Source: Escherichia phage WPEC5. Taken from it: a stretch of 64,000 nt of DNA. The translations under genes were made by a program, and so were the position numbers. Positions 21,965-26,565 of this stretch are shown one piece after another (positions within the stretch are counted from its first letter, which is position 1; every line of letters starts with the position of its first letter). A model generated the notes under the pieces. The model was not told where the DNA came from and made no database searches. It worked only from the letters and a program-made list of their open reading frames with translations. The stretch is taken from sequence record PV654397.1, one strand, 5' to 3'.

Positions 21965-22171
21965 TTACTTCCTATATATAAGCATTAACATATAGTAGTA
22001 CTGATTATGCTGTACATTCTCTTTAATATTATAAGGGTCTATAGCAATCTCGGTACATCTGTTAAATGCATAGCTATTAAATGCCAGTACTATTATAGAT
22101 CTAATCCATGCTTGGTCAGTCGGTGGTAGTTTACTTATATAGTACTCTTTATAGTTTTTTATGTTCTGCAT
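21965..22171 (-). CDS. small-protein tandem family member (68 aa)
   Basis: ORF in tandem array; family C-terminus Y..LL.LIY.. Confidence 0.5.
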   Translation of the reverse strand: MQNIKNYKEYYISKLPPTDQAWIRSIIVLAFNSYAFNRCTEIAIDPYNIKENVQHNQYYYMLMLIYRK

Positions 22172-22182
22172 AGTATACCTTA

Positions 22183-22374
22183 TTATTTCAAAGTACCATA
22201 TAGTACTCTTAATAGGAAGTAGTACGTATTAGAGATATCATTAGTAGTTAAAACAATCTTTGTACACATATTAAATTCGTATTGAGTCATTGCCAGGGGG
22301 ATTAAATTGTTAACCCATGCTTGTTCGTTTTCTTTTAGTTTACTTATATAGAAATCTTTATGTTCTTTATTCAT
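22183..22374 (-). CDS. small-protein tandem family member (63 aa)
   Basis: ORF; N-term MNKEHKDFY, C-term LLRVLYGTLK. Confidence 0.5.
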   Translation of the reverse strand: MNKEHKDFYISKLKENEQAWVNNLIPLAMTQYEFNMCTKIVLTTNDISNTYYFLLRVLYGTLK

Positions 22375-22576
22375 ATAGGAATAGTATACCTATGATGCCG
22401 GAGTACATATTAGTACTGTTATTATTGGCGTTTGCGTTTAAAGTCATTTGAATACAATTATTGTAGCATACTCTGCCGAAATAAGTATCAGTACTTAAAG
22501 GTGCTGTAGTCCTTAGAAACATTTGTTCTGTGGGGCTGAGGTGTTTGGAATAGAATTCTTTATGTTCTTTATTCAT
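22367..22576 (-). CDS. small-protein tandem family member (69 aa)
   Basis: ORF; N-term MNKEHKEFYSKHLSPTEQ; near-duplicate of 22950-23156. Confidence 0.5.
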   Translation of the reverse strand: MNKEHKEFYSKHLSPTEQMFLRTTAPLSTDTYFGRVCYNNCIQMTLNANANNNSTNMYSGIIGILFLYE

Positions 22577-22581
22577 ATTAG

Positions 22582-22767
22582 TTAGTGTCTGTATATAAGT
22601 AATAGTAAGAATACGTACTGCACCTGTTCATCTTTAGTATTGAGTACTGTACGTATTGCGTCATGGAACAAGAATATAGTACTTGGGTCATTAGAATTTA
22701 AGGGGTTTACGGGGACGGCGTGTTTGTAGTTCCCTTTAACAAATTGTATATAGTATTCTCTATGCAT
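22582..22767 (-). CDS. small-protein tandem family member (61 aa)
   Basis: ORF; MHREYY ... LLLLIYRH. Confidence 0.5.
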   Translation of the reverse strand: MHREYYIQFVKGNYKHAVPVNPLNSNDPSTIFLFHDAIRTVLNTKDEQVQYVFLLLLIYRH

Positions 22768-22768
22768 A

Positions 22769-22957
22769 TCAGTACCTATATATTAGGGCGAGAATGTAGT
22801 ACAGTTTATATGTATTATAATCTGGGTTGATAGCACATAGTGTGTGGTAGTGGAATTGTTTGGTATTTTTCTTATCCTTGATATCTATTGGGTTTAGTGG
22901 TATAAGCATTTGGGAGTTTAGTTCCAGATGGTTTAAGTAGAATTCTTTGTTATTCAT
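22769..22957 (-). CDS. small-protein tandem family member (62 aa)
   Basis: ORF; MNNKEFY ... ILALIYRY. Confidence 0.5.
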   Translation of the reverse strand: MNNKEFYLNHLELNSQMLIPLNPIDIKDKKNTKQFHYHTLCAINPDYNTYKLYYILALIYRY

Positions 22958-23156
22958 AGAAGAATATTAGTCCCATTACGCCTGAGTATTGAATATTTTT
23001 GTTATTGTTTTCTAAAGCTTCTAGAGTAATACGTATACAATTATTAAAGCAATCTCTGGCGTGTGGTGTATCTAAACTTAAAGGTGATACACTCCTTAGA
23101 AACATTTGTTCTGATGCACTGAGGTGTTTGGTGTAAAATTCTTTCTGTTCGTTCAT
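22950..23156 (-). CDS. small-protein tandem family member (68 aa)
   Basis: ORF; MNEQKEFYTKHLSASEQMFLR. Confidence 0.5.
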   Translation of the reverse strand: MNEQKEFYTKHLSASEQMFLRSVSPLSLDTPHARDCFNNCIRITLEALENNNKNIQYSGVMGLIFFYE

Positions 23157-23166
23157 ATTGGCCTCT

Positions 23167-23355
23167 TTAGTACACGAAAGCTAGGTACAGTGTATGATAC
23201 AGTACTCGATGATAGCTATCAAAATCTAGTATACATGCTTTAGTGCACATAGTAAAGTACACTTTATCGTTTTGAGCATTGATACCGCGAGGTTTATCTA
23301 ATAGATTAGTACTGAGGTACATTGGGAAATATTTTGTGTAGTATTCTTTATGCAT
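23167..23355 (-). CDS. small-protein tandem family member (62 aa)
   Basis: ORF; start trimmed to family-type MHKEYY at 23355. Confidence 0.45.
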   Translation of the reverse strand: MHKEYYTKYFPMYLSTNLLDKPRGINAQNDKVYFTMCTKACILDFDSYHRVLYHTLYLAFVY

Positions 23356-23356
23356 A

Positions 23357-23539
23357 TTAGTACCTGAATATAAGTAGGATAGTGTTATATAATTGGTCAT
23401 AACTACTACTATTTTCTATACTTCGTTCTATGCAGTTATTGAATCCCAGTACTGCCAAATCGTTATCCAGGGGGACTTTGTATCTGGCGTAGTGTTCAAA
23501 AATGCTGGGGAGAAATTGTGTGTAGTATTCTTTGTGCAT
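23357..23539 (-). CDS. small-protein tandem family member (60 aa)
   Basis: ORF; MHKEYYTQF ... ILLIFRY. Confidence 0.5.
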   Translation of the reverse strand: MHKEYYTQFLPSIFEHYARYKVPLDNDLAVLGFNNCIERSIENSSSYDQLYNTILLIFRY

Positions 23540-23540
23540 A

Positions 23541-24953: not shown

Positions 24954-24960
24954 GTCTACC

Positions 24961-25140
24961 TTAGATTGAGATTAGTTTAAGTACTTCTCTGTACGTGTAC
25001 TTTTCGTTTTGTGCTTCTACTGTACACGAGAGTAGATAACGTTTTTTATCTCTTTTGTTCCCGACTGTGTAGTACCTTTGGAATTTATTATAGTTGTATC
25101 TATCTTTGTGCTGGAGGTTATAGATATAGAATTCTTGCAT
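24961..25140 (-). CDS. small-protein tandem family member, subfamily B (59 aa)
   Basis: ORF just under track cut-off, hand-translated; MQEFYIYNL ... YTYREVLKLISI. Confidence 0.4.
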   Translation of the reverse strand: MQEFYIYNLQHKDRYNYNKFQRYYTVGNKRDKKRYLLSCTVEAQNEKYTYREVLKLISI

Positions 25141-25148
25141 AGAGTACC

Positions 25149-25334
25149 TTAGATTGCTATCAGTTTGAGTACTTCAATATATGTGCGGTACTCTGCTTTA
25201 ATTAAATTTGTACACACTGTAAGGGAATTTCTTTGTATAAGTTTATTGCCGCTTTTATACGCATTTCTCCACACATAGAGATGAGATCTTTCAGGCATAG
25301 ATAGTTTATTTGTATAGTACTCAAATGTATTCAT
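25149..25334 (-). CDS. small-protein tandem family member, subfamily B (61 aa)
   Basis: ORF; MNTFEYYTNKL ... YIEVLKLIAI. Confidence 0.5.
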   Translation of the reverse strand: MNTFEYYTNKLSMPERSHLYVWRNAYKSGNKLIQRNSLTVCTNLIKAEYRTYIEVLKLIAI

Positions 25335-25342
25335 ATATTACC

Positions 25343-25525
25343 TCAAATAGAGATTAGTTTAAGTACTTCTCTGTATGTGTACTTTTCGTTTTGTGCATCT
25401 CTTGTGCTTGTATATAGGTATCCTCGACGATATTTGTTGCTCCCGTTCTTGTAGTTGAATTCGAACTTATTGTAGATGAATCTATCGCCAGGCTGTAATT
25501 TACTTAAGTACAATTCAATGCTCAT
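25343..25525 (-). CDS. small-protein tandem family member, subfamily B (60 aa)
   Basis: ORF; start trimmed to ATG 25525; C-term YTYREVLKLISI. Confidence 0.45.
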   Translation of the reverse strand: MSIELYLSKLQPGDRFIYNKFEFNYKNGSNKYRRGYLYTSTRDAQNEKYTYREVLKLISI

Positions 25526-25535
25526 AGTATTCTCT

Positions 25536-25721
25536 TTACATATCAATAAGTTTCAGTACTGCTCTGTACGTGTACTTAGTTGTTAGTGCTTCTTTTATAG
25601 CAATACAGAAGTAATGTTGTTTGTCTCTTATACTACCGCGTTTGTAGTACCATACATTGGAGTTGTGGGTGTACTTGTCCCTGTCGGATAGATTTTGGTA
25701 ATAGTATAATATATGATTCAT
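25536..25721 (-). CDS. small-protein tandem family member, subfamily B (61 aa)
   Basis: ORF; MNHILYYYQNL ... YTYRAVLKLIDM. Confidence 0.5.
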   Translation of the reverse strand: MNHILYYYQNLSDRDKYTHNSNVWYYKRGSIRDKQHYFCIAIKEALTTKYTYRAVLKLIDM

Positions 25722-25930
25722 GGTAATGTAATTAGCCTTATTATGTTAAAGTACTCGGTCCCTGGTACACCTTGTAGAATATTATCAACTACATTTTCTT
25801 GGTGCAGGATTAATACATTCGGTGCGGTTCTTTTAAGGTTTTTTAAAGTACTGTATTCTTGTTTAAGGATGAACTGTACATCTTTAGGGAGAATATCTAA
25901 GTAGTACTGGTGTATGTTCATTGTTTTCAT
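25718..25930 (-). CDS. small-protein tandem family member (70 aa)
   Basis: ORF; MKTMNIHQYYLDILP, paralog of 26129-26341. Confidence 0.5.
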   Translation of the reverse strand: MKTMNIHQYYLDILPKDVQFILKQEYSTLKNLKRTAPNVLILHQENVVDNILQGVPGTEYFNIIRLITLP

Positions 25931-25941
25931 ATAGTACTCTT

Positions 25942-26127
25942 TTAGAACTTAAAGATGAGGTTCATGATAGATAAGTACTTAGTTTCAGGAAATTGATGTT
26001 CTATTGCATAACGTGTCTCCAGTCTGAAGTCAAATTTATAAAAGGGACTATTCATATCCATAGGTTCATTGGGAAATGAATCTCTGTATTGTTTGTGCAG
26101 CTTACTACAGTAGAATTCTTTATACAT
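25942..26127 (-). CDS. small-protein tandem family member (61 aa)
   Basis: ORF; MYKEFYCSKL ... MNLIFKF. Confidence 0.5.
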   Translation of the reverse strand: MYKEFYCSKLHKQYRDSFPNEPMDMNSPFYKFDFRLETRYAIEHQFPETKYLSIMNLIFKF

Positions 26128-26128
26128 A

Positions 26129-26341
26129 TTAGTGCTCGATTAAAAGGGTTAGGATGTAATAGTATTGCATACTTTCTACCCCTTGTACAGCATTTCTTAT
26201 TTTATTATTCCTGTACGAGTTCAAGAGTTTAGGACAATGTTTGAAGTTTATATAATTATTTTGTGTATACAGTAGGCTTTCTCGTAGACCTTTTGTTGGT
26301 AGTGCATCAATGTAGTACTGTTCAATGTTCATAGTGTTCAT
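26129..26341 (-). CDS. small-protein tandem family member (70 aa)
   Basis: ORF; MNTMNIEQYYIDALP ... ILTLLIEH. Confidence 0.5.
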   Translation of the reverse strand: MNTMNIEQYYIDALPTKGLRESLLYTQNNYINFKHCPKLLNSYRNNKIRNAVQGVESMQYYYILTLLIEH

Positions 26342-26565
26342 AGAGCTACCAGTACTAAGATTTTTGATAATTGTTTATTGCTATTCCCGCAGATGTTGCT
26401 GTGTAAAATACTCACTACAAGGGTATCAAGTGCATTGTTCAGCATAAGGTTACATCCAGTACTGTTATGTGTTTTTAGCTCAATTAGCCACGAACTATCC
26501 GCGAGAAACTTCGCGTACTCTAGTTCATTTAGAGTATTAATGTAGTACTTAAGTGTAGTTGTCAT
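26338..26565 (-). CDS. first gene of small-protein operon (75 aa)
   Basis: ORF; AAGGAG SD and promoter TTGACA-N18-TACTAT directly upstream. Confidence 0.5.
   Translation of the reverse strand: MTTTLKYYINTLNELEYAKFLADSSWLIELKTHNSTGCNLMLNNALDTLVVSILHSNICGNSNKQLSKILVLVAL

Follow-up and report, generated by a model that had tools for sequence, protein, structure and literature searches.

A tandem array of about twenty small paralogous genes with a predicted four-helix fold beside the terminal repeat of Escherichia phage WPEC5

Introduction

Jumbo phages are candidates for therapy, and more than 80% of their genes have no known function. Gene clusters read by the host RNA polymerase occur in SPO1, T5/BF23 and Kayvirus, and the terminal repeats of SPO1 and Kayvirus carry early host-directed genes. 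Near-terminal tandem paralogues that vary in copy number, diverge fast and are tied to immune evasion or host range are found in African swine fever virus (the multigene families MGF100, MGF110 and MGF360) and in the 'accordions' of poxviruses. The internal proteins of T4 (IPI*, IPII and IPIII) are small and polymorphic, are packaged in the head and have a short conserved N-terminus, a signal that is cleaved off; at least one of them, IPI*, is a counter-defence factor. According to four reports, the terminal repeats of T5 likewise hold early host-directed genes, and a host-takeover module is named in SPO1 (10.1101/569657, PMC10644984, 10.64898/2026.04.02.716235, PMC9241854). In polymorphic toxin loci, tandem paralogous immunity genes encode small, often all-helical proteins, each of which is thought to neutralise a different toxin variant (PMC3482391, PMC3113570). 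Here we analyse a locus with likenesses to these systems in Escherichia phage WPEC5 (sequence record PV654397.1), where, within a stretch of 64,000 nucleotides (hereafter the window), an operon-like array on the minus strand at 21965–26565 packs about twenty variants of one small, confidently modelled orphan protein into 4.6 kb.

A single family of small genes

The array comprises 20 small open reading frames (ORFs) of 57–75 aa and one of 219 aa, with spacings of −8 to +11 nt (Table 1). All ORFs listed in the original prediction, which was made from the sequence alone, are found on the minus strand where it placed them, including two 59-aa members (24577–24756 and 24961–25140) that are as described. 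Its estimate of about 21 tandem paralogues of 57–78 aa holds for the dense tandem arrangement but not for the numbers: 19 are proven paralogues, one is possible (26338–26565) and the 219-aa gene is unrelated. The lengths of 77 and 78 aa are an artefact of choosing the longest ORF; the starts were moved to 23355 (62 aa) and 23914 (57 aa) on the basis of the conserved N-terminal motif and the annotations of WPEC3 and other records.

All-against-all BLASTP of every window ORF of at least 45 aa placed 12 small array ORFs in one group and six in another, with composition-corrected pairwise E values among array proteins down to 3e-29. A hidden Markov model (HMM) of the family picked out 19 of the 20 small array ORFs, with E values of 7e-12 to 5e-23; of the 207 window ORFs, about 190 of which lie outside the array in the same AT-rich window, no other scored below E 10. 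Profile comparison indicates that the two main subfamilies, A and B, are of common ancestry: with alignments enlarged by orthologues, hhalign aligned them collinearly over their full length (probability 92%, E 6e-7; 58% and 1e-4 with window sequences only). Two further members, 26129–26341 and 25718–25930, are 37% identical to each other and are tied to A by BLASTP (3e-4 for 26129–26341 against 21965–22171) and by a collinear profile alignment. Six tested members match phrog_11711 (PHROGs v4, function unknown) at E 5e-7 to 1e-27 over positions 1–62 of 62; these end-to-end matches are members of subfamily A together with 25942–26127, and the four B and pair members tested gave none. The genes at 25718–26565 had been described as variants; of these, the pair is linked to A, 25942–26127 belongs to subfamily A and not to a separate variant group, and 26338–26565 is not significantly similar to the other genes. 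The broader proposal of a dense, single-strand, operon-like array of true paralogues in two main subfamilies is borne out.

Coding status and selection

Shine–Dalgarno-like 4-mers stand at −16 to −5 of 10 of the 21 array starts, against 3 of 74 other same-strand ATGs (P = 7e-6). Of the other starts, nearly all either lie inside the end of the preceding gene, with overlaps of 4 or 8 nt, or are separated from its stop codon by 1 nt, as is customary in translational coupling. No noncoding RNA or tRNA was found in or near the array.

Across 15 orthologous pairs between the array and phage 121Q, the nonsynonymous rate (dN) was 0.128 and the synonymous rate (dS) 0.272, a dN/dS of 0.47 (bootstrap 95% confidence interval 0.37–0.57); pooled ratios against five other relatives were 0.42–0.44. 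The 66 flanking small genes of the coding strand gave 0.18 (0.15–0.22), and spurious antisense ORFs, which provide an internal control for non-coding ORFs, gave 1.2–1.9 in the same comparison. Since the array ratio is clearly below 1 and the antisense ratios exceed 1, the ORFs are coding and under purifying selection, which is about 2.6-fold weaker than on the neighbouring small genes (permutation P = 2e-4). The array is the fastest-changing small-gene block of the window.

The region is AT-rich (33% GC) and rich in Tyr, Asn, Ile and Lys, and the original prediction had named AT-rich, low-complexity codon usage as what might explain the similarities, in which case the ORFs would not be real genes. 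We consider this excluded for practical purposes: the family HMM matches none of the roughly 190 other window ORFs, the BLASTP similarities stand with composition correction, dN/dS is well below 1 while that of antisense ORFs is above it, the ORFs are kept in more than 30 genomes, and the AlphaFold models are confident.

The coding-strand GC skew of the array is −0.17, compared with +0.09 for flanking genes and +0.15 for the divergent array of RCC1-like genes next to it; this opposite sign on the array's coding strand explains why no switch in plus-strand skew is seen at 26.6 kb. The array skew results from composition (Tyr 10%, Gly 1.9%) and from a preference for C at third positions (TAC 61% versus 41%, CAC 60% versus 33% and TTC 62% versus 39%).

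The first gene and the embedded 219-aa ORF

The first gene (26338–26565) has no significant BLASTP or profile similarity to other array genes. Against the family profile hhalign returned E 0.011 and a probability of 4%, which leaves its membership unsupported; its ends are family-like (…KYYINTL…, …ILVLVAL), and it is possibly a very remote member. Its dN/dS of 0.47–0.57 is like that of the array.

The 219-aa ORF, which the original prediction had correctly placed within the array, is by HMM unrelated to the small-gene family. It matches phrog_29152 (function unknown), has no Pfam domain and is basic, with a KKRNKKKKSR patch. Its homologues are unannotated and come from the genus Asteriusvirus only; in each of the eight phages compared it separates the B block from the A block, and it has a dN/dS of 0.45, like the array, and is truncated in Salmonella-infecting relatives.

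Predicted structure and protein features

With a mixed family alignment (query 23541–23732), AlphaFold2 produced a model with a predicted local distance difference test (pLDDT) score of 89.5, a predicted template modelling (pTM) score of 0.73 and helices at residues 4–10, 14–17, 30–45 and 49–62; a B-only alignment (query 24961–25140) gave pLDDT 89.6, pTM 0.70 and helices at 2–7, 11–26, 29–43 and 46–58. Helix order is identical in the two models, which differ in what connects the first helix to the long hairpin: in A a loop, in B a helix. The family is confidently predicted to adopt a small four-helix fold. The conserved columns (Y7/Y8, L12, F36, C39, T40, I44, Y53, I56, L57, L59 and I60) are spaced in a manner resembling the buried face of packed helices, with a hydrophobic core formed by an N-terminal E-[YF]-Y...L, a central F..C-T...I and a C-terminal Y..IL.LI; the N-terminal motif, conserved in all members, is built into the folded core of the model. 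The entropy profile is most variable at columns 13–35 and 45–52. Within orthogroups, family-core columns vary in 7% versus 15% elsewhere (Spearman 0.41, P = 9e-4), with hot spots in the loop at 22–25 and the helix3–helix4 turn at 45–47. These patterns show a conserved core and a predicted exposed surface, made of the helix-2/loop segment and the helix3–helix4 turn, that varies between copies.

No 19-residue window of any array protein reaches transmembrane hydrophobicity, which argues that the proteins are soluble, and a membrane or holin-like role was ruled out for want of a hydrophobic stretch of transmembrane length. Isoelectric points (pI) range from 5.5 to 9.6, with four B members at net charges of +4.5 to +5.6 and pI 9.4–9.6; tyrosine makes up 10% of residues, and no metal-binding motif is present.

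Scanning all 20 members against Pfam-A and NCBIfam yielded only isolated chance-level matches in one member each (best E 0.007). PADLOC-DB 2.0 profiles matched neither the four small array proteins searched nor the 219-aa ORF (E up to 1), and array proteins had no match in a PDB sequence search or among PHROGs with a function. Fold searches of PDB and BFVD with both models returned nothing informative, and a kinship with HEAT/ARM-like alpha-solenoid repeats, gauged by superposition on a repeat unit together with a repeat-profile match, is at most tentative. Fifteen of the top 60 structural matches were common to the two models, which supports a common predicted fold and says little on function, and BFVD matches at E < 1 were solely uncharacterised 60-aa proteins, one of them from 121Q, which are evidently family members. 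Thus the profile searches and structure predictions that the original prediction had proposed as checks converge on a common predicted four-helix fold, with matches only to the function-less phrog_11711 and phrog_29152.

Distribution and turnover among relatives

A megablast search with 21900–26700 matched 35 phage records at 88–99% identity, each of them a jumbo coliphage or a Salmonella phage with a genome of about 320–386 kb; they belong, like the window phage, to the 121Q/PBECO4 group, and those with a lineage are assigned to the genus Asteriusvirus. The closest relatives are fEgEco12, Ecwhy_1 and WPEC3, and in the closest records the small array ORFs, where annotated, are labelled 'hypothetical protein'. 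A word-indexed search of 5.8 billion proteins recovered 48 family clusters and an exhaustive HMMER search of 1.84 billion cluster representatives 31 matches; these wider matches, of 49–98 aa, all match array members, and their sources are genomes of Asteriusvirus or size-matched contigs. The most divergent homologues, from phages JNE01 and Turkey5, belong to the same array at the same locus. By these searches the family is confined to the genus Asteriusvirus and always occupies the same locus.

The comparison with related phages that had been suggested reveals turnover of both copy number and gene content. Family copies number 19 in the window, 20 in SHEFM2K, 19 in slurp01, 18 in WPEC3, 16 in G17, 15 in 121Q, 14 in Salmonella phage SD-15 and 14 in JNE01. 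The 135 family proteins of these eight phages fall into 39 orthogroups at a threshold of at least 70% identity: nine common to all seven close relatives, 16 patchy, and 14 JNE01 genes that are all private. Gene order is also reshuffled; the orthologue of 22950–23156, which here lies in the distal A block beside a 59%-identical paralogue, is the third operon gene in five relatives. The longest DNA repeats of the block cross gene junctions, joining the last codons of one gene to the first of the next (25–66 nt, 62–97% identity), and could thereby serve as homologous stretches in unequal crossing-over.

A comparison of the window phage with JNE01 shows protein identities of 83–100% for the nine small genes that follow the array (16149–20557 against L007 7912–11963), whereas everything from the array onward is 24–57% identical (array genes 25–57%, the 219-aa ORF 38%). 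JNE01 is divergent across much of its genome (PMC10868205), so that the drop in identity is to be read as a mosaic boundary at the array and not as a measurement of rate. The sharpness of this boundary at the repeat end suggests a recent exchange of the repeat between lineages.

Transcription signals and genome position

The best promoter near the array, of sigma-70 type, is followed by AAGGAG and the first ATG. The original prediction had placed a promoter at about 26591–26620, and the site is real (26619–26591) and conserved: it is identical in six relatives, and JNE01 keeps the hexamers (TTGACA-17-TACAAT). Promoter-like matches inside the array occur only at chance level (23 versus 28.9 expected), so additional internal promoters are possible. 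On the minus strand, no terminator-like hairpin was found from the array promoter until 21658–21642.

The array promoter carries in its spacer the 9-mer TCAGTACTG (26600–26608, minus strand), of which the window has 57 copies against 0.5 expected, densest at 1–21800; a recurrent promoter, TTGACA/TTGCAA-N7-TCAGTACTG-TATAAT, precedes many small genes at 1–21,300. Further examples of the 9-mer are at 21276–21284, 16427–16435 and 54480–54488 (all minus strand); it often forms part of the 10-bp palindrome TCAGTACTGA, and other copies stand alone in noncoding DNA, with a cluster at 21682–21762. It may act as an operator for a regulator of early promoters; a literature search for the motif returned only primer noise. 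A perfect TCAGTACTGA palindrome also lies at 23953–23962, inside the 219-aa ORF near its 3' end and 40 nt before the 23914 start, with no −35 or −10 hexamers alongside, and could be an internal regulatory site before the A block.

The motif TATAAATA, the T4 late-promoter consensus, is depleted in the window (three copies in 64 kb versus 12.8 expected), and none of the copies serves the array. Each lies 22–33 nt upstream of a start codon: one, at 26637–26644 (plus strand), precedes the first RCC1-like gene, and the other two, at 59179–59186 and 60421–60428 (minus strand), precede genes annotated as structural in 121Q (starts 59157 and 60388). This placement suggests T4-type late promoters together with selection against stray copies. 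The 106-bp region between the small-gene and RCC1-like arrays seems to hold an early-type promoter directed leftward and a late-type promoter directed rightward. From the conserved sigma-70-type site, the shared 9-mer and the lack of TATAAATA, we infer that the array promoter is early rather than late.

Phage fEgEco12 has direct terminal repeats of 20,993 bp, confirmed by PhageTerm and restriction digests (PMC13070987). It is 99% identical to the window phage here, and the inner boundary of its right-hand repeat maps, in alignment coordinates, to window position ~21,662; the G17 record likewise ends with a base that aligns to 21662, and the terminal redundancy of G17 was reported as 'about 20 kb' (PMC6563267). 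Window positions 1 to ~21662 are probably terminal-repeat sequence. The boundary coincides with the hairpin at 21642–21658, about 300 bp past the last array gene, so that the array (from 21965) adjoins the repeat and is not within it. It is a unique-sequence transcription unit that abuts a terminal repeat of about 21 kb and is transcribed toward it, with the orientation that the ~70 small genes of the repeat also have. The 650 bp between the repeat boundary (~21662) and the next promoter (21297–21270) have no convincing ORF.

Table 1. Features of the small-gene array and its flanks, in window coordinates and in order of transcription of the array.
Feature	Position	Strand	Length (aa)	Remarks
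TATAAATA late motif	26637–26644	+		28 nt upstream of the first RCC1-like gene (26672); divergent from the array
Sigma-70-type promoter	26591–26619	−		TTGACA-17-TACTAT (10/12); best site near the array
First operon gene	26338–26565	−	75	Strong Shine–Dalgarno sequence (AAGGAG); first in every relative
Family member	26129–26341	−	70	Longer helix3–helix4 connector; HMM E 7e-12
Family member, subfamily A type	25942–26127	−	61	phrog_11711 E 2e-15; HMM E 1e-21
Family member, partner of 26129–26341	25718–25930	−	70	Longer helix3–helix4 connector; BLASTP, HMM
Subfamily B block	24577–25721	−	59–62	Six members, four strongly basic; BLASTP cluster
B member	25536–25721	−		
B member	25343–25525	−		
B member	25149–25334	−		
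B member	24961–25140	−	59	
B member	24765–24953	−		
B member	24577–24756	−	59	
Embedded ORF	23907–24566	−	219	phrog_29152; between B and A blocks
Subfamily A block	21965–23914	−	57–69	Ten members; phrog_11711, BLASTP, HMM
A member	23741–23914	−	57	
A member	23541–23732	−		
A member	23357–23539	−		
A member	23167–23355	−	62	
A member	22950–23156	−		
A member	22769–22957	−		
A member	22582–22767	−		
A member	22367–22576	−		
A member	22183–22374	−		
A member	21965–22171	−		
Terminator-like hairpin	21642–21658	−		First downstream of the array (GGCAGAGGAAGTCTGCC)

Neighbouring families

A second tandem family, of about 15 RCC1-like (beta-propeller) paralogues of ~380 aa each, occupies 26672–44893 on the plus strand and is interrupted by a 216-aa minus-strand ORF (43041–43691). 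Its span varies between relatives from 10.9 to 18.2 kb, roughly in parallel with the size of the small-gene array (five phages). Several short ORFs at 48592–51860 (minus strand) cluster with the RCC1-like family in BLASTP; lying apart from the main array, they resemble the remains of at least one decayed RCC1-like gene. Another small tandem family consists of three consecutive paralogues of ~113 aa (55150–55494, 55496–55837 and 55847–56185, minus strand). Within the presumed repeat, 17258–17497 and 19300–19539 (minus strand) are paralogous 79-aa genes (DUF7249, phrog_871) with 75–93% nucleotide identity to genes of unrelated coliphages (Phapecoctavirus, Vequintavirinae, Justusliebigvirus and others), a pattern that points to horizontal exchange of this small gene between phage groups.

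Interpretation

The reading we favour, tentatively and at a little short of an even chance, is that the array is an early operon encoding diversified small cytoplasmic binders of host targets, acting in takeover or counter-defence. Early timing, cytoplasmic binding and host targets are each what we infer; the host-binding role is proposed because of the analogy with early small-gene regions at or in terminal repeats and with the fast-turning tandem families of large DNA viruses. Under such a scheme the host RNA polymerase would read the array from its single sigma-70-type promoter as an early transcription unit, to be translated as a tightly coupled polycistron into genus-specific, lineage-expanded, soluble four-helix proteins of ~60 residues. 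Each copy would keep the hydrophobic core and differ in the exposed helix-2/loop segment and the helix3–helix4 turn, and each member would have its own target early in infection, be it a separate host protein or a separate variant of one; unequal recombination at the conserved junctions (a 3' end and the next 5' end) would add, delete and reshuffle cassettes. It is also conceivable, but in our view unlikely, that the copies form a repertoire of minimal helical inhibitors, each directed against a different host defence or toxin variant, with the junctions as recombination sites by which phage populations could enlarge, shrink and reorder the set when their hosts change. The label 'anti-defence or immunity-like' in the original prediction is no more than a reasonable hypothesis.

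Several points weigh against host-directed binders. Sequence and fold searches returned no similarity to known anti-defence, takeover, immunity or regulatory proteins, and for the four basic B members the ligand might be nucleic acid and not protein. The confidence of the AlphaFold models may be inflated by shallow single-genus alignments, and the early timing is read from promoter motifs only. A test for diversifying selection, which the original prediction had proposed, found no dN/dS above 1 in pooled or per-gene comparisons, save for one gene with few substitutions; because the ratio stays below 1, the raised rate could reflect relaxed constraint and not an arms race.

Those basic B members, along with the basic patch of the 219-aa ORF, would fit proteins that are instead small nucleic-acid-binding or regulatory factors of the phage itself, such as transcription modulators or nucleoid-associated proteins. 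A zinc ribbon expanded to ~35 copies in Bacillus phage G was interpreted by Iyer et al. as a possible set of transcription factors or of structural proteins that bind DNA (PMC7824862). We nevertheless think such a role of the array proteins rather improbable. About equally low is the probability that we attach to largely dispensable duplicated DNA, generated by junction recombination, in which most copies drift without distinct function. The dN/dS that is raised without exceeding 1 (0.47 versus 0.18), the frequent gain and loss, the junction repeats, and the combination of the smallest arrays and truncated 219-aa ORFs in Salmonella-infecting relatives would all fit such drift. However, all 20 small ORFs are intact, nine orthogroups persist in all seven close relatives, the hydrophobic core is kept on both time scales with dN/dS clearly below 1, and the very divergent JNE01 array has 14 intact members in the same layout. 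Were the array dispensable, it would be useful for genome reduction of therapeutic jumbo phages.

A slightly smaller chance still goes to proteins that are packaged in the virion, being internal to it or ejected from it and sharing an N-terminal targeting motif in the manner of the T4 internal proteins, or that serve as a chaperone or partner for each RCC1-like paralogue. The N-terminal motif is indeed conserved in all members, and the array is divergent from the variable tandem array of RCC1-like genes, two of which (gp549 and gp551) are present in the phAPEC6 virion (PMC7247149). The two arrays also co-vary, with 19, 20, 15, 14 and 14 small genes against RCC1-like spans of 18.2, 14.6, 14.2, 10.9 and 11.3 kb, although five phages are too few and are non-independent. 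Yet the array has a sigma-70-type promoter and no late motif serving it, the N-terminal motif lies in the folded core of the AlphaFold model and not in a free signal, and array members are absent from the 62-protein phAPEC6 virion proteome (PMC7247149), in which small proteins are easily missed.

Should the array encode host-directed binders, as we tentatively favour, it would supply a natural variant panel in which to look for inhibitors of defence or new targets in the host, a marker by which to follow host-range adaptation in Asteriusvirus, and a clean system for studying the expansion and contraction of a tandem family in a bacterial virus.

Comparison with known systems

Some of what is described here was known already: phrog_11711 catalogues the subfamily A proteins (without function, array, turnover or promoter information), and small early-gene clusters and lineage-specific expansions are known in kind. 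In the Asteriusvirus genome papers and jumbo-phage reviews searched, we found no account of a single operon that holds about 20 paralogues sharing one orphan ~60-residue fold and whose turnover is documented.

Like the SPO1 host-takeover module, the T5/BF23 pre-early region and the Kayvirus clusters, the array is a dense set of small genes, mostly of unknown function, in or beside long terminal repeats; unlike those clusters, whose genes are mostly unrelated, it consists of ~20 paralogues of one predicted fold, lies just outside the repeat, and has an early timing deduced from motifs. With the immunity arrays of polymorphic toxin loci it shares small, helical, tandem and diversified proteins, but it has no toxin gene nearby or in the operon and no match to a Pfam immunity family, and its setting is a lytic phage. 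The T4 internal proteins are similarly small and varied with a shared N-terminal motif, whereas the N-terminus of the array proteins belongs to the predicted fold, the array is served by no late promoter, and members were not detected in phAPEC6 virions, where small proteins are easily missed. Many copies of one domain in a single jumbo-phage lineage are also seen in the zinc ribbon of Bacillus phage G (PMC7824862) and in the phage's own RCC1-like array; the small genes differ from these in fold, in lacking a metal-binding motif, and in having all copies in one operon.

The families of African swine fever virus and the poxvirus accordions resemble the array in being tandem paralogues near a genome terminus that vary in copy number and diverge fast. 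They are larger, belong to eukaryotic viruses and have no sequence or fold relationship to it, and for the array a link to host range is hypothetical. Should the copies prove to be a repertoire of inhibitors, the terminal multigene families of large eukaryotic DNA viruses would have an analogue in a virus of prokaryotes, one that uses a fold seen nowhere else.

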